Shown: piece by piece, positions 2,578 to 22,394 of the stretch
How positions within the stretch are numbered: position 1 is the stretch's first letter
Layout of the letters: each line of letters opens with the position of its first letter
Assembly: GCA_040770465.1 (NCBI GenBank)
Contig: JAXGJB010000040.1
Span: 1-23,956 of the forward strand
Reading direction: 5' to 3'
Length of the DNA stretch: 23,956 nucleotides
From: Methanothrix sp.
Lineage (GTDB): Archaea; Halobacteriota; Methanosarcinia; Methanotrichales; Methanotrichaceae
The notes under the pieces: model-generated
Databases searched by the model: none
The model's input: the letters and a program-made list of their open reading frames with translations, nothing else
What the model was told of the DNA's origin: nothing
Translations under genes and position numbers: made by a program

Positions 2578-4677
2578 CTAAGATCCCCCGGCTGCGCCGT
2601 CTAGGATATCAAGCACCTCTCCAGGATCCGTCGTCGGCCTCTGGCAGACGTTCCCCGAGCAGACGTAGGCGGCCGCTCTGCCGTCCAGGATCGTCATATC
2701 CGCCGTGAAGTCGGCTATCTCAGCGATCTTTGGGCGCTCTCCTTCAGGCCTCAAGATGACCACCATCCTCGGCAGATACTTCGACCTGAGGGCTTTTATC
2801 ATCGCCGCCGTCTCCGGAGAACCCGGATCTCCGGCGATCACCACCTCCGTCGACGGTCCCAGGAAGAAGTCCAGGGCAGAAAGGAGGTGGAGGTGTGCCG
2901 CGGGAAGCCCCCTCACCTGAGGTGTGAATGCCTTCAAGGCATTCGAGGCGACATCTTCGAGCCTCTGGTCGCCCGTCATCCTAGCCAGCCTCAAAAGGTC
3001 CAGGACGGCGACGGCGTTCCCGGATGGGAGGGCTCCGTCGATGCCGTCTTTCTTGCGGAGGATCAGATCCTCGCCGTCTTCCGGCGTGAAGTAAAAGCCT
3101 CCTTTCTCCCCGTCGCCGAACCTTCTCACCATATCTCGGGCGAGGGTGAGGGCGGCTTCGAGGTATCTGGTCTTGAAGCCCGCCTCATAAAGCTCGATCA
3201 GCCCCCATATCAGAAAGGCGTAGTCGTCCAGGTTCCCCAGAATCCCTGCGGAGCCCTCCCGGTAGCGGTGTAGGAGCCGGCCCTTCCCATCCCTCATATC
3301 TTCGAGGATGAAGTCTGCGGCCCGGGACGCCGCGACCTCCAGGTCCTCTCGGTCCAGAACCTGGGCACCCCGGGCGAGGGCAGCGATCATGAGGCCGTTC
3401 CAGTCGGCGAGGATTTTGTCGTCTTTGTTGGGCCGAACCCTCTTCTCCCGAGCAGAAAAGAGCTTTTTGCGGGCGACCTCCAGCCTCTCTCTCAGGTCGG
3501 ACTCCGGGATCCCCAGATTTCGGGCGTGATCCGCCATGAGCCTCTTTGAATGGAGGACGTTCTTTCCGGTGAGCCGGCCCGTAGCCTCCTCCCAGAAGTT
3601 GCCTTCCGCCCGGACCTCGAAGATCCTCGCCACCAGGTCCGCCTCGTCCTCGTCGAGGATCTCTCTTTGCTCATTCAGGGTCCAGAGGTAGTACTTTCCC
3701 TCCTCCCCCTCGCTGTCGGCATCCTCTGCGGAGTAAAATCCCCCTTCTTGGGCGGTCATATCCCTGAGGACGTAGGCGAAGACCTCCTCTGCGATTCTGC
3801 CGTACTCTGCCTTTCCCGTCGCCTGGTGCGCCTCCAGGCAGGCGAGGGAGATCATCGCCTGGTCGTAGAGCATCTTCTCGAAGTGGGGGAGAAGCCACCC
3901 CGCATCGGTGGAGTAGCGGTGAAAGCCGAACCCCACCTGGTCGAAGATGCCGCCCCTCCTCATGGAGTTGAGGGTGATCTCGGTCATGGCAAGGCTGGCG
4001 GGGTCGCCGGTCCTCCTCCATGTGCGGAGGAGGAAGAGGAAGGTGGTGGGCGAGGGGAACTTCGGCGCGCCCCCAAACCCGCCGTTTGCGGCGTCGAAGC
4101 GGGCTGCGAGGTTCTGGTATGCCGACCTGATCGCCGACTCGTCGAGCCTCATCCCCGGAATCTCCGGGAGCGGCTCTCTGAGGGCGGCTGTTATCTCCTC
4201 CGACGATCTGAGAAGCTCGCTTCTCTCGTTCCTCCACAGCAGCCTGATCCGGGGGATGAGGTCGAGCATCCCGATCCTCCCGTACCTCGTCTCTTTCGGG
4301 ATGTAGGTGGCCGCTAAGATGGGCTTCTTGTCGGGGGTGAGGATGACGTTCAGGGGCCAGCCTCCTCCCCCGGTCATCATCTGGCTGACCTTCATGTAGA
4401 TCCCGTCGAGGTCGGGCCGCTCCTCCCGGTCCACCTTGATGCAGACGAAGTTGGCGTTCAAGAGCCTCGCCACATCCTCGTCCTCGAATGACTCGCGGGC
4501 CATGACGTGGCACCAGTGGCAGGTGGAGTAGCCTATTGACAGGAAGACCGGCTTATCTTCCTCCCTCGCCTTCCGAAATGCCTCCTCCCCCCACGGACGC
4601 CAGTCAACGGGGTTTTCCGCGTGCTGGAGGAGGTAGGGGCTCACTTCAAAGGCCAGTCGGTTCTTCTTTTTTCCCAT
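2578..4677 (-). CDS. yyaL: Thioredoxin-domain / six-hairpin-glycosidase-like protein (YyaL/SSP411/SPATA20 family)
   Basis: [71 protein letters not shown]. Start placed at ATG 4677 (MGKKKNRL) because the family N-terminus begins there. Confidence 0.9.
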
Positions 4678-6064
4678 CGATATCACCCGGTCGGTTCCCG
4701 ATATTTCCGGCGGCGGAGGTCTTGTCGTTTTCCTTCTCCGCCCCCGCCTTCTCTTCAGCCTCTCTCTCGTCGGTGGGGCGGCCCACCCCATCTTCCGCTC
4801 CGGCTTTATCAGGGGAGTGCTCCTCTTCTGCCATGCCGTCTTCGCCTCTTTCCGCCTCGACGCGCCCCCAGAGGACCTCTCCGGGACGTCCCCACCGGCC
4901 GGCCTCGATCACCGTACCGGGGTAGACGAGCGTACCGACGCCGGTCTTCGCCCCCTCGCCGAGGACGGCACCGAGGGTCCTCCGATCGGTCTTGGTCCTC
5001 TTCCCTTCGGCGTAAGATATGACCTCCGACCCGTCGTGACGCCTGTTGGCGACGATCGTCCCGACCCCCAGGCTGCATCCGGGGCCGACGACGCTGTCTC
5101 CGACGTAGCAGAGGTGGGATACCTCCGTCCCCTCCATTATGACGCTCCTCTCTATCACCGCGCCGGTGCCGATCCGGACGCCGTCTCCCATCGACGCCGG
5201 TCCTGTAATGAGAGAGTTGGGGCCGATCTCGCACCCCTCCCCGATCACCACCGGCCCTTCCAGGTAGGAGCCGGACCTTATCACCGTCCCTTTGCCCACG
5301 GCGACCTCGCCGGAGAGGGTCGCCCCACCGTCCACCTCGCCGAGGACTCCGCGGGATTCCGGGGGAACGGTCTCGTTCGCTTCTAGGATGTCCCAGGGAA
5401 GGACGATCTCGATCCAGCTCTCAACCTCCACCGCCCGGATCTGGACACCATCGGCGAGAAGTGAGAGCACCCCCTCCATCAGATCCAGCTCCCGGCGCCC
5501 CTCATCCGAGGACGGAATGACTGCTCGGAGGGCGTCGAAGATCCTTCGATCGAGGAGGGAGATTCCGGCGAAGATCAGGGCGGACGAGGGAGCTCTCTCC
5601 TTCCCGTCCACCGTTTTGAGAAAACCATCCGCAATCTTCAAGATCCAGTCCCTCTCAGGGTCCGGGTCTTCGACCCGAGCCGTCGCGACGGCGGGCCCCC
5701 CCTCCTCCACCATCCTCTCCAGGGAGGCGGCGTCGCAGAGGACGTCGCCGTTCATGACCAGAAACCGATCCTCTGCCAGCTCCTCGGCAGAAAGGAGGGC
5801 GCGGCCTGTCCCGAGCCCTTCATCCTGGACGACGTACTCGATTGCGACATCGAGATCGCTTCCGTCGCCGAAGTGGTCGATGATCTTCTCTTTTTTGTGG
5901 CCGACGACGATGACGAACTTCTCGACCCCTGCCTCCTTCGCCCTCTCCAGAATGTTTTCGAGGATGGGCTTTCCGCCGACGGGAAGCATCGCCTTGGGAA
6001 GTGTGGCGGTTAGGGGCCGCAACCGTCTCCCCTCCCCCGCCGCGAGAACTATGGCCTGCCTCAC
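4646..6064 (-). CDS. Archaeal GlmU-like sugar-1-phosphate nucleotidyltransferase/acetyltransferase (divergent)
   Basis: [26 protein letters not shown] nucleotidyltransferase signature, GLGTG, NGD; C-terminal hexapeptide beta-helix ([11 protein letters not shown]); GTG start; low-complexity tail overlaps yyaL by 32 nt. Confidence 0.8.
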
Positions 6065-6077
6065 TCTCTTGTCTCCA

Positions 6078-7004
6078 TCAGTTTCCTTTGTATATCCTCA
6101 GGGCCTCTTCGACGGAGGCGTCGTCGAGGGTGATCGCACTTATGGCGTCGCACATCCTGGCAGCCTCGTCGAGGTCCTTCTGGTGGATGTTCCTCCCGGT
6201 GGCGTTGCCGGCCGCGCCGCTGACGTGGATCTGGTCATGGAGCTGCTGGAGGAAGGATGCCGGGTCGCGGCTCGCGCCCCCGGCGCAGACGACTCCCGTC
6301 CGCCCGGCGGCTGCCACCGCCTCCTTGAAGATCTCCTCGGACATTTCGCCCTCTTTTTTGGGGTAGCTGACCTTGACGAAGTCCGATCCGAGAGCTGCGG
6401 CAACCCCCGTCGCCCCCGCGATCAGGTGGGGGTCTTTTTCGTCAATGACGGCTTTGCCTCTGGGATAGATCCAGAGGACGGTGACGAGGCCCTGGCGATG
6501 GGCCCGATAGACGATCTGAGCCGCCTCCCGGAGCATCTCTGCCTCGCGCTCGCTTCCCAGGTATATCGTGTAGCCCACCCCCAGAACGTCGAGGCCACTG
6601 TCGTCGGCGAAGTCTGCCACCTGGTCCACGTCGACCAATTGGCGACTGACGGGGTCCATCTGGTCGGTCTTGACGAGGTCTGTCTTGGAGTTCAGCTTGA
6701 CGAGGTAGGGGACTTCGGGGTAGTCCATCCCGTACCTCGCGATGAGGCCGAGCTGGGCTGCAAAGACCCCGATCCTCCCCCGCTTCGCGATCCGAAAGAG
6801 GTGCTCTGGGTCGCCGTCCTCGGGGCTGATCCCGGGGCCGAAAAAGTCCCGGTTCAGGTGCTCGACCTTCTGGTCTCCAGCAAAGAGCATCAGCCGGCCG
6901 GTATTCTTTGTAATCCTGAGGTAGTTGTCGACGTAATCGTCGCGCCTTTCGGGCGGCACGTCCTGGGGCACCAAGACGTCTTCAGGTCCGATTTTGATGG
7001 TCAT
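6078..7004 (-). CDS. Class I (DhnA-type, Schiff-base) aldolase, probably fructose-bisphosphate aldolase
   Basis: FAGDQKVEHLN, YLVKLNSKT, LWIYPRG, DFVKVSYP (Schiff-base Lys), AGG, ATGRNIHQ. ATG 7004 follows SD GGAGTGAGG; GTG 7013 is the alternative start. Confidence 0.82.
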   Translation of the reverse strand: MTIKIGPEDVLVPQDVPPERRDDYVDNYLRITKNTGRLMLFAGDQKVEHLNRDFFGPGISPEDGDPEHLFRIAKRGRIGVFAAQLGLIARYGMDYPEVPYLVKLNSKTDLVKTDQMDPVSRQLVDVDQVADFADDSGLDVLGVGYTIYLGSEREAEMLREAAQIVYRAHRQGLVTVLWIYPRGKAVIDEKDPHLIAGATGVAAALGSDFVKVSYPKKEGEMSEEIFKEAVAAAGRTGVVCAGGASRDPASFLQQLHDQIHVSGAAGNATGRNIHQKDLDEAARMCDAISAITLDDASVEEALRIYKGN

Positions 7005-7023
7005 GATCCTCACTCCCTACTTT

Positions 7024-7959
7024 TCACTCCTCCGAGATGATCTCAAGCTTCACCTGGGGCACGATCGTCTCGACGTCCTCCTTCTGGGCGAGGGCGGTCC
7101 CCTGCCGCAAGGTAGTCGCTGTCCCGGCGGCGGTCGCGAGGATCAGGGACTCTTTGAGGTCTCTTCCTGAGACCTGGCCGCAGATGAACCCTGCCACCGA
7201 CGAGTCTCCCGCCCCGATGGTGTTCACCACCTCTACCGAGGGGGGCACCGCCTGGTAGGCCTTCCCGTCGGAGACGAGGAGGATCCCCCTCGGCCCCATG
7301 GAGACTAGGACGATCTCAACGCCCTTCCTGTTGATCTCCCGGGCAGCCTCCAGGATCTCGTCCCTCTTCTCAAGTTTTCTTCCCACCAGGCTGGAAAGCT
7401 CGTGGATGTTCGGCTTGATCACGTCGGGCCTTCCTCCGATCCCCATCTTCAGGGCCTCCCGATCGACGTCCAGGACCACCTTGGAGCCCCGGAGCCGCGC
7501 CGTCTCGATGATCTTCCGGTAGATATCGGGGTGGGCTCTCGGCGGAAGGCTTCCTCCGATGCTCACAAACTCTGGGTCCTCAATACTCCTGACGACGTCG
7601 GTTATCTCCAGAAGCTCGAAGGGCTTCACTTCGGGGCCGGCGGAGTTGAGGATTATCTGCCTCCCGGTGACCAGCTCGTGGATGACGATGTTGATCCTCG
7701 TCTCGCCGGAGACGGGGATGAAGTTGCACCGGGTTCCGTCCCTGATCAGCTGGGCCTCCAGCTGCCGGCCGGCAAAGCCCGCGATGAAGCCGAGAGCCCT
7801 GTTCTCAACTCCCAGGGCAGTCAGGACCTTGGAGACGTCGATCCCCTTCCCTCCGGCGTAGCTCTCCTCTCGTATGATCCGGTTTGATACGTCCTCTCGA
7901 ATCTCGTTGATCCAGAGGGTCCGATCCAGTGCTGGGTTGAGGGTTATGGTGTAGATCAA
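7024..7959 (-). CDS. pfkB: PfkB/ribokinase-family phosphosugar kinase (FruK/Pfk-2/LacC-like)
   Basis: IYTITLNPALD, GGKGIDVS, GETRIN, GGSLP, IKPNIHEL, SMGPRG, NTIGAGDS (catalytic Asp); TTG start. Substrate cannot be fixed from sequence. Confidence 0.88.
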   Translation of the reverse strand: MIYTITLNPALDRTLWINEIREDVSNRIIREESYAGGKGIDVSKVLTALGVENRALGFIAGFAGRQLEAQLIRDGTRCNFIPVSGETRINIVIHELVTGRQIILNSAGPEVKPFELLEITDVVRSIEDPEFVSIGGSLPPRAHPDIYRKIIETARLRGSKVVLDVDREALKMGIGGRPDVIKPNIHELSSLVGRKLEKRDEILEAAREINRKGVEIVLVSMGPRGILLVSDGKAYQAVPPSVEVVNTIGAGDSSVAGFICGQVSGRDLKESLILATAAGTATTLRQGTALAQKEDVETIVPQVKLEIISEE

Positions 7960-8020
7960 TCATGACACCGCCGTATTTGGATTTCTCAGGAATTTCTGGA
8001 ATATCGCACATCTCGCTTAG

Positions 8021-8059
8021 GACGGCAAAAGCGCGGCCGGGCTCTAGGCCGCGCCCGTC
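8021..8059 (-). terminator. GC hairpin followed by T4, directly after the oxidoreductase gene
   Basis: GCGCGGCC (8031-8038) / GGCCGCGC (8047-8054) perfect 8-bp stem with 8-nt loop, followed on the minus strand by TTTT (8030-8027); outer GACGG/CCGTC arms. Confidence 0.6.
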
Positions 8060-8062
8060 GGT

Positions 8063-9796
8063 CTACCATCCTCTCCGCTTTCGGTAAATCTCCATCATCG
8101 TATCGATCGTCTCGGGATCGACCATCCCCATGGTGGAGATGGTCTCAAAGAACCTTCCCGGAATCCTGGACGTCTTCAGGTCGAACCCCTCCCGCCGCTT
8201 GAACCTGTACTTCTCGTCGAAGATCCTTCGGCCGAGAAGCTCCAGCTCATCGGCCGTCTTTTCGATCCCCACCGATCCCAGGGCCTCTACTATGTTTTCG
8301 TTGGTGTACACCGCCCTGGCGAAGAGGCAGCCGACGAGGGAGTTGTAAACTCCCCTCGAGTCGTCCTCTTTGATTATGGCGTCGACCATCTCTTCGGGAC
8401 CGAGATTCTTCTTCGCCGCCTTCTGGTCGATGCTGTACCCGGCGTTGTCGAGGTGGGAGTGTCTCACCCCCACGGTGAGGCCGACGATGGAGGCGGGGCC
8501 CGTGTGATATCCGGGAACCTCGTTTTTGCCGAGGGCCATGGCGAAATCCCGGCCGCCGTACCTCTCAGAGGCGACCTCGACCCCCTGGGCCAGAGCGGCG
8601 TAGAACTCGTTTTGCATCTTGACGATGTTATCTATCGCCTCCAGGTAGCTCTCAACGTCGTCCCATTTGGGGGACAGGCCCATGGTATCTTCGGTGGTTA
8701 TGAGCCCCCGGTCGAGGGCCTCCGTCGCCCAGGCGAGGACGACCCCGGTGCTGATGGCGTCGATCCCATGCCCCTCGCAGGCCTCGATCAGCTCCAAAAC
8801 CCCCTGGGGGGAGGATACGCCGAGGTTCGACCCGAGGGCGTAGATCAGCTCGAAATCGTAAGAGATCTTTCTGATCTCATACTCGTGCTGGCGGGAGAAG
8901 GAGGTCTTCAGCATCCCGATGTGGATGCAGCCTATGGGACAGTGGGCGCAGGATACCCTCCGGAAGAGGTAGTCGTCGGCGAGGATCTCGCCGCTGATCT
9001 TATCGGCCGCTTCGAAACTGCTCATTTTGAAGTTTCGGGTGGGAAGCCCTTTCAGCTGGTTTAAAACGTTGATGTTGATGGGGGTTCCGATGTCGTGATA
9101 CTTCTCCATGGCGTCGGTCTGGACGACGGTTCTGTAGAGCCTGTTGTAGATCTCCCTGTACCTTCTGGGGTCTGGAACTTCAACGTCCTCGGTCCCAGAG
9201 ATCACCATCGCCTTCAGGTTCTTCGACCCGAATGTGGCCCCAAGCCCCAGCCTTCCGAAGTGTCTGTAGGTGTCGACTACGACCCCGGCGTACTTGACGA
9301 GCCTCTCTCCGCCCGGTCCGATCCTGATTATGCTCCTTCGGCCCACGCCGGTCTCGACGTCGCGCAGGATGTAACCGACGACGTTGGCGGGTATCCCCCA
9401 TATCGACCTGGCATCTTTGATCTGGACGTCGTCGTCGGTTATGGATATGTAGCAGGGCCGGTCGGCTGCGCCCCTGATGACGATCGACTCGTGGCCCGCA
9501 AACCTCATCGCCATGGCTAGCCTCCCTCCGGCGTAGGACTCCCCCAGCTCGCCGTTGAGGGGAGACTTGAAGGTGGCGACAGTCTTGGTGATAGCCGGAA
9601 AGAGGGCGTTCAAGGGTCCGATGGAAAATATTATCGGGGCCTCCGGGGAGAGGGGGTCGGTCCCCTCGGCGCACTCCTCAAAGAGGAGCCGGGTGGCTAC
9701 CCCCGTCCCGCCGAGCCACTCCTCGAAGAGGTCGTCCCTCTCCTCAACGAAGCTCTCGCCTCTGTCGAGATCGATGTAGAGAACTCTTCTCAGCAT
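8063..9796 (-). CDS. Tungsten-dependent aldehyde:ferredoxin oxidoreductase family protein; resembles the large subunit of two-subunit glyceraldehyde-3-phosphate:ferredoxin oxidoreductase (GOR-L)
   Basis: KSPLNGELGESYAGG, RHFGRLGLGATFGSKNLKA, CAHCPIGC plus distal GCLF [4Fe-4S] ligands, YDFELIYALG, GIDAIS. Paired with a polyferredoxin and flanked by sugar-phosphate genes. The family call is firm; the GOR subtype rests on recalled motif style and context. Confidence 0.85.
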   Translation of the reverse strand: MLRRVLYIDLDRGESFVEERDDLFEEWLGGTGVATRLLFEECAEGTDPLSPEAPIIFSIGPLNALFPAITKTVATFKSPLNGELGESYAGGRLAMAMRFAGHESIVIRGAADRPCYISITDDDVQIKDARSIWGIPANVVGYILRDVETGVGRRSIIRIGPGGERLVKYAGVVVDTYRHFGRLGLGATFGSKNLKAMVISGTEDVEVPDPRRYREIYNRLYRTVVQTDAMEKYHDIGTPININVLNQLKGLPTRNFKMSSFEAADKISGEILADDYLFRRVSCAHCPIGCIHIGMLKTSFSRQHEYEIRKISYDFELIYALGSNLGVSSPQGVLELIEACEGHGIDAISTGVVLAWATEALDRGLITTEDTMGLSPKWDDVESYLEAIDNIVKMQNEFYAALAQGVEVASERYGGRDFAMALGKNEVPGYHTGPASIVGLTVGVRHSHLDNAGYSIDQKAAKKNLGPEEMVDAIIKEDDSRGVYNSLVGCLFARAVYTNENIVEALGSVGIEKTADELELLGRRIFDEKYRFKRREGFDLKTSRIPGRFFETISTMGMVDPETIDTMMEIYRKRRGW

Positions 9797-9819
9797 CCGG
9801 TCTACCTCCGATCATCTCC

Positions 9820-10293
9820 TCAATCTTCTACCTCTTCCATCTCCAGGACCCCGTGGGGGCAGAAGGCGACACAGGCCCCACAGTGCTTGCACTTGATCGC
9901 CTTTCCTTCGGCGTCCAGGGAGATCGCCCTGATGAGGCAGGCGTCGGAGCAGGCCCCGCATCCCTCGCAGAGCTCTCGGTGAAATACGACCCGTCCGTCC
10001 TCCTTCTGCTCGAGGGCCCCCGTGGGGCAGGCCTCAACGCACGGGGGGTCTTTGCAGGCGTGACAGACGACCACGGCGAAGTCGCCCTCCAGCCCACCCT
10101 GAGTCTTCACCTTGATGGCGCTTCTGGAGAGGGACGCCCGGCCCGTGTTTACCCTGCTGCAGGCGAACATGCAGGAGAGGCAGCCGATGCACCTCTCCGG
10201 GTGGGCGACCTTGAGCCTCCGCCTCTTTCTCTTCGCCTTCTCAGGCTTCGCCCTCTTCGATTCGACGCCAGCCTCTCCACTGGCCTTGCTCAT
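9820..10293 (-). CDS. 4x[4Fe-4S] electron-transfer subunit (DmsB/CooF-like; GOR-S-like)
   Basis: CIGCLSCMFAC, CHACKDPPCVEACP, CEGCGACSDAC, CKHCGACVAFCP. Start uncertain: ATG 10293 has SD-like GGAGCAGG; ATG 10326 and TTG 10341 are possible. Confidence 0.85.
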   Translation of the reverse strand: MSKASGEAGVESKRAKPEKAKRKRRRLKVAHPERCIGCLSCMFACSRVNTGRASLSRSAIKVKTQGGLEGDFAVVVCHACKDPPCVEACPTGALEQKEDGRVVFHRELCEGCGACSDACLIRAISLDAEGKAIKCKHCGACVAFCPHGVLEMEEVED

Positions 10294-10450
10294 CGGTCCT
10301 GCTCCCGTTTCCAGTTCGTCGGGCATTGCAGACGATTCCAAACCAGCTCACAACCTCGATCTTGATCGGTCCAAGTTAGATCGTCTCTTCCTGAAGGGCA
10401 AAACCGGATGGTCAGTTTCGCCATCAGAACGATCTAAAAATTAGTTCGCA

Positions 10451-10470
10451 TAATTATTAATCATTTCTCG
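10451..10470 (-). promoter_or_regulatory. BRE/TATA promoter for the FeS-GOR-pfkB-aldolase unit
   Basis: Minus strand CGAGAAATGA-TTAATAATTA, the most AT-rich patch of this intergenic region. Confidence 0.55.
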
Positions 10471-10626
10471 TCAGGATACCCGAGATTAGACGAGGGGGTG
10501 GAGAACGGCCGGGTTCGAGGACGGATGGGTCTTCGAAGAAGTGGCTGTTTTTCGGACAAGATGCGAATTGACGGTTAAAATGGGTTCTGATGGGAAGGCT
10601 AAGGCGCCCTCCCAGGTTCCTGGTCT

Positions 10627-11739
10627 TCACTCGGCGTCCTCGAACCTCTCGCCCAGGGTCTTGAGGACGGATGGCAGCGTGGTGTACTCCATGTCCTCCA
10701 TCGGCAGTCGATGGGGCTCGAAGGGGCCGTGCCTTCTCATGTAGTCGGTGACCTCCTGGACCCTCCGTCTGGTGAGGTCGAATGCCGGATCTCTGAAGAG
10801 GTCGACGGGGCCGATCAGCATCCCCCTGGCGATCTGGAACCCTGCGGCAATGACTCGCGGGGGACCGTCGAACCGTGTGCAGCAGGCGTCCTCGAAGGCG
10901 CAGGGCATCAGGGGACCGTTGTGGCTCCCCCTCATCCAGCCGCTGACGAGGTGGCCGAGGGAGAAGGGCTCCAGGACCTCGCCGAGGGCTGGAAGCCCCG
11001 ACTGGGCCCTCACCAGGGCTACGGGGTCATCTTTTCCTACGTACTTGCCTGCGGTCTGGTAGAGCTTCTCGGTACTGACGACGGCGGCTGGCTCGTCCTC
11101 GGGAAGCTTTCCGGGCTTCGGGTAGACCCTCTTGATGACGTATCTGCTCTTGGCGCCGATGAGGGCCAGGATGTCGTACATCTCCTCCGGGGACTGCATC
11201 ATCACCTTCTTGTGCTCCATGATGTCCCAGACCTCGAATATGAACCCCTGGTGGATGCTGGGGTCGATGACGAGGCCGGCGGTGTTGAAGGGGTCGGCAA
11301 ATATCCTAAATATCGGCAGGTTGAATGCACCGGGCTCGGTCTTGTCCATCATGAAGGCGACTACCGGCTCTGCCACTCGCTCGTGAAACTCCATCTCAGC
11401 GACCCCCGGCCCCATCCCCTTGATGTTGCCGCAGAAGGCATCGCATAACAGGTCCTGGCCCGCGCCGTAGAGCTTCAGCTCCTCGGCCTTCTCCGTCGCC
11501 TTGACCATGACGTCCCAGGCGAGGCCGTGGATCTCTGCGTTGTCCTCGCCGAGGAGATGTGTCATCATGAGCTGGAGGTCGTCGCCGACGGACATCACCT
11601 TGAAGTCGATGATCCTTCCTCTTGCCTTCTCCTGGGCCAGAACCGATTCTGCAACCTCTTTCAGTGCGGGGTGAACGGTGGCGTGTCCGGGCCATCCGCC
11701 GACGTCTGCTTTGATCAAGCTGATAGTGATTTTGCTCAT
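10627..11739 (-). CDS. fbp: Bifunctional fructose-1,6-bisphosphate aldolase/phosphatase (class V FBPase)
   Basis: SLIKADVGGWPGH, GDDLQL, YGAGQDLL, DKTEPGAFNLP, YVGKDDP (Schiff-base Lys and Tyr), GWMRGSHNGPLMP, EYTTLP; 370 aa. Confidence 0.96.
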   Translation of the reverse strand: MSKITISLIKADVGGWPGHATVHPALKEVAESVLAQEKARGRIIDFKVMSVGDDLQLMMTHLLGEDNAEIHGLAWDVMVKATEKAEELKLYGAGQDLLCDAFCGNIKGMGPGVAEMEFHERVAEPVVAFMMDKTEPGAFNLPIFRIFADPFNTAGLVIDPSIHQGFIFEVWDIMEHKKVMMQSPEEMYDILALIGAKSRYVIKRVYPKPGKLPEDEPAAVVSTEKLYQTAGKYVGKDDPVALVRAQSGLPALGEVLEPFSLGHLVSGWMRGSHNGPLMPCAFEDACCTRFDGPPRVIAAGFQIARGMLIGPVDLFRDPAFDLTRRRVQEVTDYMRRHGPFEPHRLPMEDMEYTTLPSVLKTLGERFEDAE

Positions 11740-11859
11740 TTACAATCCCCTCTATCCGGTCGACCCCTCGAATCGAAATCGGCACCTATCAGGACCATTC
11801 CGCCCCTGGCCGACGACCGACGGGGGAGCATTGATTCGGATCGTTGCCAACCGGCTGTG

Positions 11860-11877
11860 GTGATTCTATTGCATCAC
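11860..11877. promoter_or_regulatory. Candidate operator palindrome GTGAT-N8-ATCAC
   Basis: GTGATtctattgcATCAC in the fbp/rbcL divergent spacer. Confidence 0.3.
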
Positions 11878-11913
11878 GCTATACTTGCAGCCTTTTACCT
11901 GTTACGGTTCCGT

Positions 11914-11953
11914 TTTTGTAACCCGGTATCCCAATTTTGTAACCCGGTGTCCC
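11914..11953. repeat. 19-bp direct repeat with 21-bp period in the fbp/rbcL divergent promoter region
   Basis: TTTTGTAACCCGGTATCCC (11914-11932) and TTTTGTAACCCGGTGTCCC (11935-11953), 18/19 identical. Confidence 0.85.
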
Positions 11954-12017
11954 GGAGAGTCCTGCTGTGGCGATATAATCGATTTTGTTTTCGCCTTGGG
12001 CCCGGATACGCCTCGCG

Positions 12018-12034
12018 CAAAAGAGAGTTTATTA
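12018..12034 (+). promoter_or_regulatory. BRE/TATA promoter for rbcL
   Basis: CAAAAGAGAG-TTTATTA about 42 nt before the ATG; shares AGAGTTTAT with the atp promoter; SD GAGGT. Confidence 0.55.
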
Positions 12035-12075
12035 CAGGAGAGCGCCATCGGTGATGTTGAGGAGCGTTCGAGGTT

Positions 12076-13242
12076 ATGGAAGTCATAGCAAAATATCGCG
12101 TCGAGACCGACCTTCCGATCGAGAAGGCCGCAGAGGCTATAGCCGCAGAGCAGTCGACTGGGACCTGGACCGAGGTGGAGCGGGAGAAGCTGGCAAGGGA
12201 CCTCGCCGCGAGGGTGATCAAAGCCGAGGGGAACTTCGCGTACATCGGCTTTCCCGAAGAGCTATTCGAGCCGGGGAACATCCCTCAGTACCTCTCAGTC
12301 GTCGCCGGAAACCTCTTCGGCCTTGGGGACCTGAAGAAGGTCCGTCTGCTGGACGTCATATTCCCTCAGAGCCTGGTCAACGCCCACAAGGGCCCGCGGT
12401 TTGGGATAAAGGAGGCTCGCAAGATCCTCGGGGTCTTCGATCGACCCCTGGTGGGGACGATCATCAAGCCGAAGGTCGGCCTCAGCCCAGAGGACACGGC
12501 GGTGGTGGCGGGCCAGGCGGTGAGGGGTGGCCTCGACCTGATCAAGGACGACGAGACCCTCACCGACCAGTCCTTCTGCCCCATCGATGAGAGGGTGGAG
12601 GCTGTGATGGCGGAGCTCTCGAAGGTCGAGGACGAGACCGGAAAGAAGGCCTTCTACGCCGTCAACGTCACCTGCGGCGCCGAGGAGATCCTGGAGCGGG
12701 CCGAGGACGTCATCGATCGCGGCGCCAACATGGTGATGGTCGACGTCCTAACCGCTGGTTTTTCGGCCCTCGAGGTCCTCTCCCGGGGGGTCAAGGTCCC
12801 GATCCACGTCCACAGGACGATGCACGGTGCCTTCACCCGCGACAGAGGTCACGGCATCTCGATGGTTCCCATATCGAGGCTCGTTCGGATGGCCGGGGGA
12901 ACCAACCTCCACACCGGCAGCTACCTCGGCAAGATGGCCGGAGATCGAGAGGAGAACGACGAGTGCAGAGACGCCCTCCGGGACGACTGGTACGGCCTGC
13001 GTCCCGTCTTCCCCGTAGCCTCAGGCGGGGTCCATCCCGGCAAAGTTCGTCCCAACCTCGATGGGTACGGCATCGACTGCATAGTTCAGGCGGGCGGCGG
13101 AGTTCACGGCCACCCCTCCGGGACCACGGCGGGCGCGAGGGCGATGGTCCAGGCGGTGGAGGCCTGGAAGGCGGGGGTCTCGGCGGAGGAGTACGCCAAG
13201 AGCCACAAAGAGCTGGAGGCGGCTCTGAAGTTCTGGTCCTGA
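12076..13242 (+). CDS. rbcL: Ribulose-1,5-bisphosphate carboxylase, archaeal form III (compact, 388 aa)
   Basis: AEQSTGTW, GNLFG, IKPKVGL, DLIKDDE, HVHRTMH, LHTGSYLGKM (loop-6 Lys), VASGG, QAGGGVHGHP; all the canonical catalytic positions checked are present. Confidence 0.92.
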   Translation: MEVIAKYRVETDLPIEKAAEAIAAEQSTGTWTEVEREKLARDLAARVIKAEGNFAYIGFPEELFEPGNIPQYLSVVAGNLFGLGDLKKVRLLDVIFPQSLVNAHKGPRFGIKEARKILGVFDRPLVGTIIKPKVGLSPEDTAVVAGQAVRGGLDLIKDDETLTDQSFCPIDERVEAVMAELSKVEDETGKKAFYAVNVTCGAEEILERAEDVIDRGANMVMVDVLTAGFSALEVLSRGVKVPIHVHRTMHGAFTRDRGHGISMVPISRLVRMAGGTNLHTGSYLGKMAGDREENDECRDALRDDWYGLRPVFPVASGGVHPGKVRPNLDGYGIDCIVQAGGGVHGHPSGTTAGARAMVQAVEAWKAGVSAEEYAKSHKELEAALKFWS

Positions 13243-13388: not shown

Positions 13389-13715
13389 ATGACTAGACAC
13401 GAGATCTTATCGAAGATCAAGCAAGCGGAAGCCGATGCTCAAGCCAGCATCGAGCAAGCCCAACAGGAGCGTGACAAGCGAATCGCCGATGCCACTGCCG
13501 AAGCAACGAACATTGTGAGAACCGCTGAGGCTGAAGCTCAGGAGTATTATGAGAAGCGTCTTGCCGATGCCGAGAAGGGAGTTCAGTCCAAGAAGCAGGC
13601 GATCATCGACGACGGCATGAAAAAAGTCAACGCAACGAAGAGCGGCGCCAGCGGCAAGGTGGACGCTGCAGTTGAACATCTGTTAAAGGAGTTTATGGGG
13701 TTGTTGCATGCTTAG
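13389..13715 (+). CDS. atpH: A1AO ATP synthase peripheral stalk subunit H (G-like)
   Basis: EILSKIKQAEADA...coiled coil...VDAAVEHLL; first gene of the HIKECFABD order. Confidence 0.88.
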   Translation: MTRHEILSKIKQAEADAQASIEQAQQERDKRIADATAEATNIVRTAEAEAQEYYEKRLADAEKGVQSKKQAIIDDGMKKVNATKSGASGKVDAAVEHLLKEFMGLLHA

Positions 13716-15777
13716 ACCCGTTGAGATGTGCCGTGTTGTCGTCGCCGGGTCGAATAAGGTTATAGAGCCAGTCATAGAGAAGCTCCACGAGCTTAATCTG
13801 TTGCATCTCGTAAACTATTCTGGTGCGGATGAAGCCTTCGAGATGGGCAAGCCCCTGGGAACGGCGTCTGGATACGCCGAACAGCTCATAAAGCTCCGGT
13901 CCATCGAGAGGTATCTCGACATCAGTGACAAGATGCCTGACAAACAGTTTCCCGAGTCTCAGGTCCTTTCACAGATGGATGGGATCCTCGGCAGCGTCGG
14001 CGATGACGTCATCGCCACAGCTGAGCGGATTGCTGAGATCGACAACGAGGTCAAGATCAAGCAGGATCAGGCCAAGGCCCTGAAGCCCCTGGCCGGGCTG
14101 CCGATCGATCTGGAGCTTTTGTACGGCTACAACACCCTTGCAGCCTTTGTGGGAACTGCCGCCTCTCCCGTCGAGGCCGATGTATCAAAGGTCTCGTACG
14201 TCAATGAGGTCTTCACCGCCAGCACTGGCAAAACCAATGCGGTGGCAGTCTTCGTGCCTGTGGAGAAAGCAGGCGAAGTTTCTGGCGTTCTCGCCGAACA
14301 CGGTTTCTCCGAGATATCCGTACCCCGGGGACCGACCGGAAGCATCGCCGGAGCCATAAGCACCCTCGAGTCCGATGCCAAGAGGCTGGAGGGCGAGAAG
14401 GCGCCGCTGCAGAAGAAGCTGAAGGACGTCAGTGCCCAGCATGAGGACCTGATTCTGGCCATCGACGAACACCTCTCGATCAAGTCCCAGAAAGCGGAGT
14501 CGCCTCTGAGGTTCGCTTCAACCGACAACGCCTTCGTGATCGACGGTTGGGTTCCGACCAGTCAGTACGAGACGCTGAAGAGCGAGCTCGATAGCGCGGC
14601 AGGTGGACGAATCCAGATCGAGAAGCTGGACGGTTCCGAGGCTGATAAGCTGGTGGAGGCCGGTGAGGACATCCCCACCAAGATGAACAACCCCGGCATA
14701 GTGAAGCCTTACGAGCTGATCACCCGTCTCTTCGCCATTCCCGAGTACAAAGAGTTCGACCCGACACTGCTGATATTCATATTCTTCCCATTGATGTTCG
14801 GCCTGATATTGGGCGATGTCGCTTACGGCGTGATATCTCTGATCGTGATGTTCATGCTGAAGCGGAAGTTCAGGACTCCAGGTTGGCAGTCTCTGATCAA
14901 CATCGTGATCATAGCGAGCGTCTGGGCGATAATATTCGGCTTCTTGTTCGGCGAGATCTTCGGGCCTCTGGGCCTGTGGGACTACATATTCAGTGGTGCT
15001 CACCACGTGGGCCTCTTGGGAACTGTGGCTCATCCGCATGAAGTCGGCATCGATTTCGGCGCTGGGTTCTACGGTCCTCTTGGGAGGATTGGGCCTTCCG
15101 GCCTTGGCGGGTTCGCTGGGGCGATGTTCCCCATGTACAGGCTGGCGACGGCCTCTGTTCTGGTTTTGATCGGCGTTAGCATCTTCATCGGCGTCGTCCA
15201 CACCGGCATCGGTTCTGTCCTGGGCGTCAAGACCGAACTCGCCTACGGCGAGAAGAGGCATGCCTACTTCGAGAGGCTTCCTGTGCTTCTCTTCCAGGTC
15301 TTCTTCGGCCTCGGCCTTCTGGGATTGATCGTCGGTGGTCTGGGCAACCCCCTGGTTCTGCTCAGCGCGCTGGTCATCGTCATATCCATCATCATGATGG
15401 TAAAGGGACCTGAAGGTGTCATGGGCGCGACTCACATACCGTTCTTTGTGAGCAACCTGATAAGCTACCTTCGACTTCTGGCCATTGGCCTTGCGTCGGT
15501 GGGCGTTGCTTTCGCTGCAAACCAGCTGGCTTTCTACGTGCTGATGCCGATGCTGAGCGGCGGAGCCACCGAGGGGTTCACGACGATAGCGATCGTTGTT
15601 GGTATAGTTGTGTTGATCATGGTTCACTTCATCAACCTGCTTCTTGGAATCCTCTCTCCGTTCATGCACCCTCTCAGGTTGCACTACGTGGAGATGTTCA
15701 CCAAGTTCTACAGTCAGCATGGTGGTGGAGTTGAGTATTCGCCCTTCGGACGTGTCCGAAGGTTCTTGAGAGATTGA
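13708..15777 (+). CDS. atpI: A1AO ATP synthase subunit I (a)
   Basis: MLRPVEM, IDGWVP, IPTKMNNP, PEYKEFDPT, GDVAYG, SYLRLLA (essential Arg), LRLHYVEMFTKFY. Confidence 0.95.
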   Translation: MLRPVEMCRVVVAGSNKVIEPVIEKLHELNLLHLVNYSGADEAFEMGKPLGTASGYAEQLIKLRSIERYLDISDKMPDKQFPESQVLSQMDGILGSVGDDVIATAERIAEIDNEVKIKQDQAKALKPLAGLPIDLELLYGYNTLAAFVGTAASPVEADVSKVSYVNEVFTASTGKTNAVAVFVPVEKAGEVSGVLAEHGFSEISVPRGPTGSIAGAISTLESDAKRLEGEKAPLQKKLKDVSAQHEDLILAIDEHLSIKSQKAESPLRFASTDNAFVIDGWVPTSQYETLKSELDSAAGGRIQIEKLDGSEADKLVEAGEDIPTKMNNPGIVKPYELITRLFAIPEYKEFDPTLLIFIFFPLMFGLILGDVAYGVISLIVMFMLKRKFRTPGWQSLINIVIIASVWAIIFGFLFGEIFGPLGLWDYIFSGAHHVGLLGTVAHPHEVGIDFGAGFYGPLGRIGPSGLGGFAGAMFPMYRLATASVLVLIGVSIFIGVVHTGIGSVLGVKTELAYGEKRHAYFERLPVLLFQVFFGLGLLGLIVGGLGNPLVLLSALVIVISIIMMVKGPEGVMGATHIPFFVSNLISYLRLLAIGLASVGVAFAANQLAFYVLMPMLSGGATEGFTTIAIVVGIVVLIMVHFINLLLGILSPFMHPLRLHYVEMFTKFYSQHGGGVEYSPFGRVRRFLRD

Positions 15778-15808
15778 GATTAGGATTAGCTAACGGAGGG
15801 ATAAGGAA

Positions 15809-16066
15809 ATGGTAGTAGAAACAATAACTGACGGTGGAATACTGTACGGACTTCTGGCTGTTGGCGCCGGTCTTGCGACTGGACTTGCCGGTATTGGTGC
15901 GGGTGTTGGTGAGCAGGGTATCGGAGCTGCTGTGGTGGGCGTCGTCGCAGAAGAGCCCGGCTTCCTGGGCAAGGGTCTGTTCCTGATGCTTCTGCCCGAG
16001 ACTCTCATCATCTTCGGTCTTGCTGTTTCACTGATCCTGATGTTCGCCTGGACGCCCTTCGCGTGA
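15809..16066 (+). CDS. atpK: A1AO ATP synthase proteolipid subunit K (c), single hairpin
   Basis: GLAGIGAGVGEQGIG glycine zipper, LPET ion-binding Glu; 85 aa. Confidence 0.95.
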   Translation: MVVETITDGGILYGLLAVGAGLATGLAGIGAGVGEQGIGAAVVGVVAEEPGFLGKGLFLMLLPETLIIFGLAVSLILMFAWTPFA

Positions 16067-16095
16067 ATTCGCCATCCTGAGCGAGGTCGAGAGGA

Positions 16096-16644
16096 ATGGC
16101 ACTAGACGCAGTGGTAGAGGACATTCTTGCAACCAGCAAGAGCAAGGTCGCGGAGATAAACGCCGAGACCGAGCAAGAGGTTGCAAGGATACTTAATGAA
16201 GCCAGAGACCGTGCCGCGGCAATCAAGTCCGAAAAAGAGGGGGAGGCAGACAGCGCTGTAGAGGCTCTCGAGCGCAGAGTAGTATCAAGCGCTCATCTTC
16301 AGGTGAAGAGGGCTGAGCTGAACGTGCGCAAGGATCTCATGGAGGAGACTCGTAAGAAGCTCGTCGAGGCGGTATCAAAGCTGCCCGAAAAGGAGAACGA
16401 GAACCTCGTCAAAGAGATCGTCAAGCCCTACAACCTGAAGGAGATGAAGGTAAGGTCCAGCAAGAAGGACCAGACCTTCGTCTCTTCTCTAGCCCCCAAC
16501 TATGGCGGGACTGTTGATACCGTCGGCGGCGTTGTGATAGAGAGCGAAGATGGATCGATGAGCTACGATCACACCTACGAAACTCTGGCGAGCGAAGCAT
16601 TCAGCAAGTCCATGAAAGACGTCTCCAAGATCCTGTTTGGGTGA
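16096..16644 (+). CDS. atpE: A1AO ATP synthase subunit E
   Basis: [11 protein letters not shown], coiled coil, [24 protein letters not shown]. Confidence 0.92.
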
Positions 16645-16648
16645 GGCC

Positions 16649-17692
16649 ATGCCGGTACTACGTTTGCCGAAGTTCGGAAAACCGGTGAAATACGCATACA
16701 TCACGGGCAGAGTTCGGGCCATGAAGACCAAACTCATACCCCACGAGATGTATCAGAGAATGCTGGGCATGGATATACCAGAGATTGCGCGGTACCTGGA
16801 GGAGACCCAATACAAGGAAGAGATCGACTCGATGGCGAAGGACCATTCCGGCGCGGAACTCGTGGAGTACGCCACCTTTGCCAATCTTGCAAAGACCTAC
16901 AGGAAACTCCTGGAGGTCTCGATCGATGAACCTCAGTTCCTCATTCTGGAGTACCTGAGGCGTTGGGACATCTGGAACATCAAGACGATACTCCGAGGCA
17001 AGTTCTATGGGGCCAGCGAAGAGGAGATCATGAAGTACCTGGTGCCCGCAGGCGAGCTGGATATGGAGTTTCTTGAGGGTCTTGTCAAGAAGGAGCGGGT
17101 CGAGGAGGTCATCTCTGCCTTCGACGGTACCGACTACTACGAGGCTCTGGCCCACTACGATGGACAAATGCTCTCTTCGGTGGAGAACGCCCTGGACAAG
17201 CTTTACTACTTCCGGATGGAGCGTGCTGTAGGCGGAACCCTCTCCGTTGGAGGCGGTCTCCTGCTGAAGTACGTCCGAAAGGAGATAGACGTCAAGAACC
17301 TGGTCACCCTCTTCCGGATGAACAAGGCCGGAATAGAGGCAAGCGTAATACAGGAGAACCTGATCCCCGGCGGAAAGCTCCACGAAGAGCTGAGCCGGAT
17401 GGCAGGCCAGTCCTACAACGAGTTCGTCAGGGGACTTGAGGGCTATCCCTTCTGGAGCGCTATCTCGGACGTCGTGGCAGAGGGGGGCAGTGTGAGCAGG
17501 ATAGAGGCGCGCCTCCGGGCATACCTCGTAAGGTACGCCTGGGCACTGTCGAACTATCATCCGCTCTCCATCCTTCCGGTGCTGGGTTACATCGTCAGCA
17601 AGGATACTGAAGTTTCAAACATCAGAAAGATCGTCCGCGGCAAGGAGGCGGGACTTTCTGCTGAGCTCATTGAAGAACAGGTGGTGGCGTAA
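16649..17692 (+). CDS. atpC: A1AO ATP synthase subunit C
   Basis: [48 protein letters not shown]; ATG 16649 follows SD GGGTGAGG. Confidence 0.93.
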
Positions 17693-17991
17693 TGCAGATA
17701 GCTGTTATCGGCAGTGGTGATTCTGTAATCGGGTTCACCCTGGCCGGGATAAGAAAGGCTTACGAGGCCACTACACAGGAGGAGCTCATCTCGAAGATAG
17801 AGGCGGTTATGGCGGATCCCGAGGTCGGGATCGTCGTCCTGGGGCAGGCTGATTTCAACAACCTTCCCTCCAGGCTGAGGGGAACGCTGACCGAATCCGT
17901 CAAACCAACGGTGATAGCCATCGGAACTGAGCAGAGCACAGAGATGAGAGAGAAGATTAAAAGGGCAATAGGTGTTGATTTATGGAAGTAG
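17692..17991 (+). CDS. atpF: A1AO ATP synthase subunit F
   Basis: IAVIG..DSVIGFTLAGI, REKIKRAIGVDLW; TAATG overlap with atpC. Confidence 0.94.
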   Translation: MQIAVIGSGDSVIGFTLAGIRKAYEATTQEELISKIEAVMADPEVGIVVLGQADFNNLPSRLRGTLTESVKPTVIAIGTEQSTEMREKIKRAIGVDLWK

Positions 17992-19715: not shown

Positions 19716-19727
19716 GGGTGGTTATCA

Positions 19728-22053: not shown

Positions 22054-22061
22054 CGAAGGGA

Positions 22062-22122: not shown

Positions 22123-22186
22123 ATGAAGTGTGATATTATATGAAGGCCGCTGATCGAAACGCCGGAGGGGATGCTGTTAAATGGTG

Positions 22187-22375: not shown

Positions 22376-22394
22376 AGCACAAGAGGATATATGT

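Follow-up and report, generated by a model that had tools for sequence, protein, structure and literature searches.

Why does Methanothrix sp. keep a RuBisCO gene back to back with the gene for a gluconeogenic FBP aldolase/phosphatase, followed by a tungsten-type oxidoreductase, a sugar kinase and an aldolase? The window analysed here, positions 1–23,956 of contig JAXGJB010000040.1, was originally predicted to encode one module forming an undescribed ferredoxin-coupled sugar-phosphate pathway. The single undescribed pathway did not hold, as the genome contains PRK, AMP phosphorylase, R15P isomerase, PGK and HPS. The idea of one module survives in part: the linkage of fbp, rbcL and the oxidoreductase genes (WorS and WorL, together WorSL) is kept well outside this genome, but pfkB and the aldolase gene form a separate pair. 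We therefore consider another answer, that the stretch is a triose/hexose-phosphate island of three units with WorSL as a GOR-like branch, probably working oxidatively, and we give this reading an even chance.

All six predicted genes were recovered as open reading frames and by family scans. The rbcL gene (12076–13242, plus strand) and fbp (10627–11739, minus strand; NF041126, 570.7 bits at a cut-off of 520; PF01950, 597.5 bits) are divergent, and the expected spacer of 336 bp between them is indeed present at 11740–12075. A spacer of 285 nt (10342–10626) separates fbp from WorS (9820–10341, minus), a ferredoxin-like small subunit matching Fer4 families, with 16 cysteines in four [4Fe-4S] motifs; translation probably begins further downstream than the listed TTG. 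Then follow the catalytic subunit gene WorL (8063–9796, minus; AFOR_N PF02730, 211.5 bits; AFOR_C PF01314, 233.1 bits), pfkB (7024–7959, minus) and, 10 nt downstream, the aldolase gene (6078–7013, minus). Only 13 nt separate the 3' end of the latter from a gene for an archaeal GlmU-type sugar-1-phosphate nucleotidylyltransferase/acetyltransferase (4646–6064, minus; TIGR03992, 401.9 bits, cut-off 292.1), a homologue of which comes after WorL in the majority of genera. Ribose-1,5-bisphosphate (R15P) isomerase, an enzyme of the AMP/pentose-bisphosphate route, was expected about 5 kb further left and is found there at 2–967 on the plus strand, truncated by the left edge of the window (TIGR00511, 438.5 bits, cut-off 314.1). 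Directly 3' of rbcL, family scans identify the A1Ao ATP synthase operon (ahaH, I, K, E, C, ..., A, B; 13389–21110, plus), which is a neighbour outside the sugar-phosphate module.

The rbcL product is a form III-like RuBisCO large chain of 388 aa. Its closest solved structure is the form III RuBisCO of P. horikoshii (2cwx, 8.7e-92), and the alignment to it retains the active-site motifs KPK, KDDE, HR, H, GK, SGG and GGG. The score with the form III model TIGR03326 is below the cut-off (414.7 against 497.45), and the N-terminus is about 23 residues shorter than that of 2cwx, the short form being family-wide. The gene is present in a single copy, and orthologs with at least 73% identity were found in 27 of 31 family genomes.

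Profile scans of the contig yielded no match for PRK, AMP phosphorylase, PGK or HPS, in line with their predicted absence from the window; all four are encoded elsewhere in the genome. The RHP set comprises PRK (NF005655, 289.3 bits at a cut-off of 236), RuBisCO, PGK (405.6 bits), FBPase and HPS, and the PHI score is 68.5 at a cut-off of 160. The AMP route is complete, with AMP phosphorylase (TIGR03327, 733.5 at a cut-off of 535), R15P isomerase and RuBisCO. Since these genes are in the genome, RuBisCO can be explained by the RHP and AMP routes as published (PMC5241800), and the same source describes Methanosaeta PRKs as active and counts the genus among the RHP carriers. The published RHP scheme (Kono et al. 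2017; PMC5241800) shares RuBisCO, PRK, FBPase, PGK and HPS with this genome. However, it uses PGK and GAPDH for the conversion of 3-PGA to GAP, whereas here the canonical GAPDH is unrecognisable and a putative ferredoxin-linked enzyme is encoded in the fbp/rbcL neighbourhood.

The only GAPDH homologue in the genome is divergent (NF003251, 85.5 against 185) and has no Pfam match. A Pfam-recognisable GAPDH is found in none of 105 family genomes, compared to 379 of 401 genomes of the phylum. All 31 sampled family genomes encode the GAPDH-like protein, in which the catalytic Cys, the RR pair and His are retained. A normal GAPDH occurs in two other families with WorSL, f7 (4/4) and f16 (7/7).

The arrangement around rbcL may have no functional meaning for the other units: rbcL would merely precede the ATPase genes, and its orientation away from fbp would reflect family-level synteny with no shared control. 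We place this only slightly below an even chance. Indeed, rbcL is followed by ahaH in 26 of the 27 rbcL-holding loci, many loci of genus g13 have inserts of 2.7–3 kb between rbcL and fbp, and in genera g14, g10, g4 and g12 WorSL is present with no rbcL nearby. Among 20 loci from other families, rbcL is never adjacent to WorSL. The spacer features back-to-back TATA-like elements, at about 11893–11901 (fbp) and 12028–12036 (rbcL), which may be the promoters of these genes, as their conservation across genera suggests; these are the only elements that the spacers of different genera have in common. A 19-nt direct repeat (two copies, 11914–11953) is species-specific. None of the RNA contigs bridges the units of the island. 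On the other hand, the divergent arrangement of rbcL and fbp is seen at 27 of 40 family loci and is retained in most genera, and both genes encode steps of the published RHP cycle.

The core of the locus is formed by fbp and WorSL, and the synteny survey of 40 family loci demonstrated that their linkage with rbcL extends well beyond the genome considered here. Of the 40 family loci, 32 have fbp–WorS–WorL in this order on one strand, as do 3 of the 20 loci outside the family, which is more than chance would give; whenever fbp and WorSL are both present, they are co-directional (35/35). The distance between fbp and WorS shrinks to at most 7 nt, or to an overlap, in genus g16 and family f16, and fbp is operonic with WorSL in g16 (three loci), f16 (one locus) and f7. 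Archaeal relatives of WorSL adjoin fbp, TIM or PRK: fbp is upstream of WorSL in both f16 and f7, one f7 locus reads fbp–TIM–WorS–WorL, and one locus of family f6 contains a PRK–WorS–WorL string. In 15 of the 20 other-family loci the WorSL neighbours are unrelated and include no sugar-phosphate gene.

WorL is the only AFOR gene in the genome, and the predicted two-subunit composition is supported by gene pairing: WorS accompanies WorL at 39 of the 40 family loci, at all 20 outside the family and at 76 of 80 bacterial ones. The closest solved structure is the broad-spectrum AOR of P. furiosus (1aor, 3.7e-75); in the alignment to 1aor, WorL keeps the equivalents of Thr243, Glu313, Tyr427 and His448 and the four cluster cysteines. 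The Thr, Glu, Tyr and His second-shell residues are those given for the GOR clade in PMC12096430, although most aldehyde-oxidising WORs have them as well. Its sequence places WorSL among the Class II tungsten-type oxidoreductases, in a distinct subfamily whose members show 42–60% identity (414–773 bits), followed by a fall to at most 35% for other AOR-like proteins. In a 50-row FastTree this subfamily sits on a long branch. Its archaeal sequences group apart from the bacterial members with glycolytic context, to which they are about 40% identical. Archaeal GAPOR was considered as an identity for WorL and rejected, given 30.5 bits with NF040818 (GAPOR_Arch) at a cut-off of 1300 and the presence of WorS.

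In bacteria, 82 same-strand neighbours were tallied at 37 scanned loci of the subfamily. The list is headed by genes of glycolysis and glycogen metabolism: class II FBP aldolase (6), pyruvate kinase (4), glycogen phosphorylase, PGI, PFK and alpha-amylase (3 each), dPGM-type genes (2) and glucokinase (1). This gene context supports the step between GAP and 3-PGA that had been predicted for the tungsten-type enzyme. Most likely, WorSL is a GOR-like GAP/3-PGA:ferredoxin oxidoreductase, comparable to the GOR of Caldicellulosiruptor bescii (formerly XOR; Class II WOR, clade 20; GAP:ferredoxin oxidoreductase) as that enzyme is described in print. Both have a large AFOR subunit and a small one with four [4Fe-4S] clusters, both keep all four second-shell residues (for the GOR clade, see PMC12096430), and relatives of WorSL likewise lie among glycolysis genes. 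However, the C. bescii enzyme is described as bacterial, whereas this WorSL is archaeal and encoded beside a gluconeogenic FBP aldolase/phosphatase and RuBisCO. With the archaeal GAPOR of P. furiosus and M. maripaludis it would share the ferredoxin-linked conversion of GAP to 3-PGA and a suggested part in the breakdown of glycogen and sugars by a methanogen. GAPOR is monomeric and, according to PMC12096430, has no Tyr/His second-shell pair, unlike WorL with its WorS partner and both residues.

In the window WorSL is flanked by fbp on one side and by pfkB on the other. The latter encodes a PfkB-family ketohexose-phosphate kinase of the 1-PFK/6-PFK type, most similar among solved structures to F1P kinase 2abq (2.6e-53) and E. 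coli Pfk-2 (3cqd, 2.2e-38). Its top score is that of 1-phosphofructokinase (TIGR03828, 309.3 at a cut-off of 292), yet no source of fructose-1-phosphate is evident, which counts against a PFK branch. The DhnA/DeoC-type class I aldolase (DeoC/LacD; PF01791, 188 bits) is probably an FBP aldolase: its closest solved structure is 4moz, 'fructose-bisphosphate aldolase' (1.7e-112), followed by the T. tenax FBPA 1ojx (1.4e-29). The archaeal class I FBPA model NF040816 was rejected (96.4 at a cut-off of 430); the protein reaches the 'aldolase' model NF005321 instead (525.5 at 420). The sugar specificities of the two enzymes are predictions, and PfkB may act on F1P, F6P or tagatose-6-P. The two genes are a separate family-wide pair that adjoins WorL only in two genera, that of the window (6/6 loci) and g4 (1/1). 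Away from WorL, a phosphoglycerate mutase gene comes after the pair, as scanned in two of ten fetched loci, and in such an operon a GAP-oxidising step is the sole gap. In g15, WorL, pfkB and the aldolase gene are each broken or missing. In g16, with its tight fbp–WorSL unit, pfkB is present in none of three genomes and the 310-aa aldolase was not found.

Taken as three units, the island would work as follows. The short form III RuBisCO would supply 3-PGA as part of the PRK-dependent RHP route and the AMP route. The one-way gluconeogenic fbp product would convert GAP and DHAP to F6P. The third unit, WorS–WorL–pfkB–aldolase, would be an ATP-PFK, aldolase and GOR branch that leads from stored glycogen and hexose-phosphate to 3-PGA with reduction of ferredoxin, WorSL interconverting GAP and 3-PGA and bypassing 1,3-bisphosphoglycerate; PGK and the conserved GAPDH-like protein with its catalytic Cys would serve the anabolic direction. 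That all three meet at the GAP/3-PGA node would explain why they are kept together. Methanothrix stores glycogen (PMC12525153, citing Pellerin 1987). The modified Embden–Meyerhof pathway of the Thermococcales, with ADP-PFK, FBA and GAPOR opposed to FBPase and GAPDH/PGK, similarly sets ferredoxin-linked non-phosphorylating GAP oxidation against a separate gluconeogenic FBP aldolase/phosphatase route. In contrast to the Thermococcales, the kinase here is of the PfkB type, the oxidoreductase has two subunits, and catabolic and anabolic genes are adjacent, in some lineages in one operon.

The substrate of WorSL, the oxidative direction and co-regulation are what we infer from sequence. Of 64 high-quality family genomes, 9 have no WorL, which hence is not an indispensable step; such dispensability suits oxidation. 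Several observations point the other way. An operon joining gluconeogenic fbp to WorSL would be unexpected if the enzyme were purely glycolytic, g16 retains this unit with neither pfkB nor the 310-aa aldolase, and PRK precedes WorSL in the f6 locus. The unrelated neighbours in other families and the separation of the archaeal clade from the bacterial members in glycolytic context also speak against the three-unit reading.

The alternative, already raised as the bolder option in the original prediction, is that WorSL runs in reverse, using low-potential ferredoxin from CODH/ACS to reduce 3-PGA to GAP, while the fbp product pulls GAP away. Together with RuBisCO (elsewhere also with TIM and PRK), WorSL would form a reductive branch of gluconeogenesis and the RHP cycle independent of ATP and NAD(P)H. 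We regard this as unlikely. It is favoured by the invariably co-directional core, the f7 and f6 strings, the g16 unit, the divergent rbcL/fbp pair and the loss of recognisable GAPDH; moreover, acid reduction with low-potential donors is known for AOR-family enzymes (PMC9295118, PMC10816221). However, PGK and the GAPDH-like protein are conserved, f7 and f16 carry normal GAPDH, genomes without WorL must also build sugars from acetate, and in the genus of the window an ATP-dependent kinase and an aldolase share the WorSL operon. Under standard conditions the reaction would cost about 26 kJ/mol, as the sign-reversed GAPOR estimate from PMC12525153 implies, and that source terms GAPOR-type enzymes catabolic only. 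The full claim is a shade more doubtful still: that in Methanotrichaceae and two related families WorSL is a ferredoxin-dependent 3-phosphoglycerate reductase, driven by ferredoxin that CODH/ACS has reduced and pulled by the FBP aldolase/phosphatase, turning 3-PGA from RuBisCO or acetate into GAP with no ATP or NAD(P)H. If true, it would explain why the family GAPDH drifted beyond recognition.

Finally, it is improbable that WorSL serves as an aldehyde:ferredoxin oxidoreductase of the general or formaldehyde type, clearing formaldehyde released by HPS, or other aldehydes, in an inherited gene order: the 1aor similarity, the shared second-shell residues, the unrelated neighbours in 15 loci and the absence of a characterised member from 38 of 40 clades holding Class II WORs (PMC13328260) would allow it, but glycolytic or gluconeogenic neighbours recur across unrelated bacterial and archaeal lineages, the subfamily is clearly apart from AOR-like proteins, and Fae is thought to capture formaldehyde in other methanogens (PMC5241800).

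Ferredoxin-linked GAP oxidation has been ascribed to Thermococci, Thermoprotei and Methanococci (GAPOR) and to some thermophilic bacteria (GOR) (PMC12525153, PMC12096430). What is new is a two-subunit subfamily with WorL orthologs in 140 of 401 sampled genomes of a methanogen-rich phylum; in the principal acetate-using methanogens worldwide, its genes are fixed beside those for RuBisCO and the FBP aldolase/phosphatase. The family-wide absence of a recognisable GAPDH also calls for explanation. If WorSL reduces 3-PGA, both the price of sugar synthesis from acetate and the assumed operation of the RHP cycle would change, and methanogens at the thermodynamic limit would have an energy-saving reductive branch. 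If it oxidises GAP, low-potential electrons from glycogen breakdown would feed directly into methanogenesis.

Open reading frame calls and family scans of the window place all six genes where the original prediction had put them. The minus strand carries a DeoC/LacD-type aldolase (6078–7013; NF005321 score 525.5, cut-off 420), a PfkB kinase (7024–7959; TIGR03828, 309.3, cut-off 292), WorL, the large subunit of a two-subunit tungsten-type oxidoreductase, recognised in the domain scan by AFOR_N and AFOR_C (8063–9796), its ferredoxin-like small subunit WorS, with 16 cysteines and four clusters by cysteine motif count (9820–10341), and fbp, encoding FBP aldolase/phosphatase (10627–11739; NF041126, 570.7, cut-off 520). 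WorS and WorL together (WorSL) were proposed to be a GOR-like ferredoxin enzyme acting on glyceraldehyde 3-phosphate (GAP) and 3-phosphoglycerate (3-PGA). The rbcL gene lies on the plus strand (12076–13242); the predicted 336-bp divergent spacer between rbcL and fbp is found, as is the gene for ribose-1,5-bisphosphate (R15P) isomerase, at 2–967.

The 388-aa RuBisCO, assigned by family scans and structure alignment, aligns best with form III enzymes (2cwx, 8.7e-92) and has the catalytic motifs; its TIGR03326 score is below the cut-off (414.7 vs 497.45), and about 23 N-terminal residues of 2cwx are absent. Family scans identify an A1Ao ATPase operon downstream of rbcL. Past this operon, the stretch 22001–23000, with the G+C content of 0.42 compared to about 0.6 in the remainder of the window, may be a mobile-element remnant; the ORF 22395–22946(+) in it weakly matches IscB, an RNA-guided endonuclease (25.8 bits, cut-off 175). 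Two ORFs between the R15P isomerase gene and a DUF255 thioredoxin-like gene, 974–1573(−) and 1745–2458(−), match no Pfam or NCBIfam family; their position is kept within the genus, with 49–69% identity.

The assembly (66 contigs, 94.85% complete) contains, outside the window, PRK (NF005655, 289.3, cut-off 236), AMP phosphorylase (733.5, cut-off 535), PGK and HPS (215.3, cut-off 200), and all matches to PHI in it are sub-threshold. There is one RuBisCO gene and one AFOR gene. Kono et al. 2017 (PMC5241800) describe PRK activity measured for two Methanosaeta species and name Methanosaeta as a carrier of the RHP (reductive hexulose-phosphate) pathway, and a metatranscriptome study (PMC6411985) reports the pathway to be transcribed in M. 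concilii. Thus, RuBisCO in this genus already has a published pathway, and the suggestion of one undescribed pathway is not supported in the form given. In the main texts of the open-access literature, we found no paper assigning WorSL or remarking on the missing GAPDH in Methanosaeta or Methanothrix.

WorL was searched for in 105 genomes of the order, which consists of a single family, the Methanotrichaceae (threshold E ≤ 1e-40). It has a match in 85 of them, and in 55 of the 64 high-quality ones; in three of the 85 (G012, G100, G101) the match is only to fragments or to a 33% paralogue, and in two WorL is broken by stop codons (G075, G080). The window proteins were mapped on 40 loci from 39 positive genomes, picked for long contigs and genus spread; these are chosen samples, and related genomes are non-independent observations. 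WorS is paired with WorL in 39 of the 40 loci, fbp is upstream of WorSL on the same strand in 32, and rbcL is present and divergent from fbp in 27, so that the predicted linkage of WorSL to fbp and rbcL is kept in relatives. The ahaH gene is next after rbcL in 26 of these 27 loci, the remaining one ending inside rbcL. The distance from fbp to WorS is less than 600 nt in 26 loci and 1–2.9 kb in six loci of genus g13; in the three loci of genus g16 it is at most 7 nt, or an overlap. The four loci of genus g14 have WorSL but neither fbp nor rbcL. Most genera have a GlmU-type gene downstream of WorL; the pfkB–aldolase pair follows WorL in seven of the 40 loci, all six of the window's genus and the sole locus of genus g4. 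In one family genome, rbcL is interrupted by three TGA codons (G018:C18:17356–18204). In another, the sole RuBisCO is 44% identical and situated at another place (G014:C26:81830–83059), and in its WorSL locus (L017) the ATPase operon comes after fbp–WorSL, rbcL being absent.

The only elements common to the rbcL–fbp spacers across genera are two back-to-back TATA-like elements. Between them, the window has a 19-nt unit repeated twice in tandem (11914–11953), 21 nt apart, with a perfect 14-nt core. Within the genome, neither this direct repeat nor the GTGAT..ATCAC palindrome occurs outside this spacer, and the repeat is absent from the congeners' rbcL–fbp spacers; as both lack conservation even within the genus, they were dropped as candidate sites of a shared regulator. 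In metatranscriptome contigs from four runs of one study, each of the six genes is covered in part. One contig spans the WorS/WorL junction, with DNA carry-over possible, and none in these runs spans fbp–WorS, WorL–pfkB or rbcL–ahaH. Since RNA kept as contigs allows no ranking of expression, and carry-over is possible, the contigs speak neither for nor against co-transcription or co-regulation. With the spacers alike in TATA-like elements alone, the repeat unique in its genome, and RNA bridging just WorS and WorL, neither the spacers across genera nor the RNA contigs of this study give evidence of shared control of rbcL, fbp and WorSL. That rbcL and fbp both encode steps of the RHP pathway is enough to explain the persistence of the pair.

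Both pfkB and the aldolase gene are family-wide. Among the 31 sampled family genomes, pfkB orthologues (56–86% identity) are present in 26 and not found in g16 (0/3), G043 and G100; the 310-aa aldolase type is present in 24, with fragments in G101, and the two genes are adjacent by coordinates in 22. The best solved relative of the aldolase is labelled fructose-bisphosphate aldolase (4moz, 1.7e-112); for the kinase, F1P kinases lead the solved relatives and E. coli Pfk-2 comes next. Nine of 10 loci fetched outside the window's genus (L159–L168) have the pair. The next gene, in the two of these 10 loci that were scanned, encodes 2,3-BPG-dependent phosphoglycerate mutase (NF010713, 333.6 and 342.4, cut-off 305), and after it comes a protein of 313–317 aa whose HPr-kinase-C-like match is weak (e.g. 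L159:6001–9583). With the mutase scanned in two of 10 loci, this looks like a four-gene operon conserved outside the window's genus. Hence, on the same two loci of 10, the usual family operon is kinase–aldolase–mutase, and the sole missing step is the one between GAP and 3-PGA. In the window's genus, the kinase–aldolase pair is joined to WorSL. Losses of WorL and of pfkB/aldolase among the 31 genomes are joint in two cases (g15, G043) and single in two or three (g16, G008, the incomplete G012), too few independent events for a test. In genus g15 (G100, G101; loci L036, L037), WorL consists of fragments with stop codons, and neither pfkB nor the 310-aa aldolase is whole, being absent or in fragments; the three may have decayed jointly.

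The Pfam Gp_dh_C domain has no match in the 105 family genomes, 14 of 14 controls being positive. It is present in 379 of 401 genomes of the phylum sample, where this is the only family uniformly without it (0/12 and the window's genome). A very divergent type-II-GAPDH-like protein is encoded in the window's genome (C5:12543–13547, corresponding to L047:1474–2481; also locus L149) and found in 31 of 31 sampled family genomes at 67–86% identity. It scores 85.5 vs 185 with NF003251 and matches 2yyy at 2.5e-14, but Pfam yields no significant hit, with no E value under 0.28. The protein has kept the motif with the catalytic cysteine, as well as the RR pair and the histidine. The canonical dinucleotide-binding motif is glycine-rich; the conserved N-terminus of this protein deviates from the usual motif. 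Judging by its sequence, it is probably the GAPDH of the family. In the window's genome, the gene has ATT where its relatives have ATG.

The best 120 homologues of WorL are all named Methanothrix or Methanotrichaceae. Among 1.84 billion representatives, the set of WorL relatives has 42–60% identity, 414–773 bits and 554–607 aa; beyond it, identity falls to 35% or less. A FastTree built from the window's own sequence, 27 loci and 22 representatives (50 rows; topology alone used) unites the set as a single group with a long branch, with the archaeal proteins in a clade of their own, roughly tracking taxonomy, and the bacterial members apart. Of the 401 genomes sampled in the phylum, 140 have an orthologue; counts by family are 10/12 in family f1, 17/52 in f2, 2/2 in f4, 48/64 in f6, 4/4 in f7, 50/54 in f13 and 1/7 in f16. 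In the alignment, WorL keeps the equivalents of Thr243, Glu313, Tyr427 and His448 of P. furiosus AOR and the cluster cysteines. The review PMC12096430 assigns the Thr/Glu/Tyr/His pattern to the GOR clade, not to the GAPOR clade; by that published description, WorL resembles in these residues the clade of the Caldicellulosiruptor bescii enzyme, CbGOR. It fails the archaeal GAPOR model (30.5 vs 1300). The name Caldicellulosiruptor is absent from the clusters of 20 subfamily representatives and from the best 80 of 578 relatives that the subfamily profile yields in species genomes.

Outside the family, 20 loci were drawn from 129 positive archaeal genomes, and WorS is paired with WorL in all of them. 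In three, fbp is adjacent or near; one f7 locus is fbp–TIM–WorS–WorL. That such linkage is tied to the loss of GAPDH is ruled out by the normal GAPDH, with Gp_dh_C, of f7 (4/4) and f16 (7/7). One f6 locus is PRK–WorS–WorL on the same strand (L060:7551–10716; PRK NF005655, 290.4, cut-off 236); PRK is not beside WorSL in four other f6 loci, and the neighbours in the remaining 15 of the 20 are unrelated. All of the best 80 among the 578 profile relatives come from bacteria (Desulfovibrionales, Syntrophobacterales, Nitrospirota and others); they share 38–43% identity with the WorL of the window, and 76 of these 80 loci have WorS upstream of WorL. Neighbours were scanned in 37 bacterial loci with full flanks; the 82 ORFs covered are those on the same strand, up to two genes away and no longer than 900 aa, out of 148 called by a simple script. 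The commonest families among the 82, headed by glycolysis and glycogen enzymes, are class II FBP aldolase (six), pyruvate kinase (four), glycogen phosphorylase, PGI, PFK and alpha-amylase (three each), lactate/malate dehydrogenase and dPGM-type phosphatase (two each), glucokinase and GAPDH (one each).

It is rather unlikely that WorSL runs as a reductase, from 3-PGA to GAP. In favour of this direction, FBP aldolase/phosphatase, reportedly one-way gluconeogenic, is operonic with WorSL in g16, f16 and f7 (with TIM in f7), and g16 retains fbp–WorSL without the kinase and aldolase; further, PRK adjoins WorSL in one f6 genome, and rbcL is adjacent in the family. The table in PMC12525153 gives the GAPOR reaction as about −26 kJ/mol and that of FBPase as about −30 kJ/mol, and we infer that reversal to 3-PGA reduction would require a very reduced ferredoxin pool and low GAP. 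Reduction of acids by AOR-type enzymes with low-potential donors is reported in PMC9295118 and PMC10816221. Oxidation, or a two-way node that is mainly oxidative, appears more likely from gene content and context, because the bacterial relatives sit in a glycolysis/glycogen context, the kinase–aldolase pair is joined to WorSL in the window's genus, PGK and the GAPDH-like protein are present for the anabolic route, nine of the 64 good family genomes have no WorL and still must build sugars from acetate, and Methanothrix, according to PMC12525153, stores glycogen.
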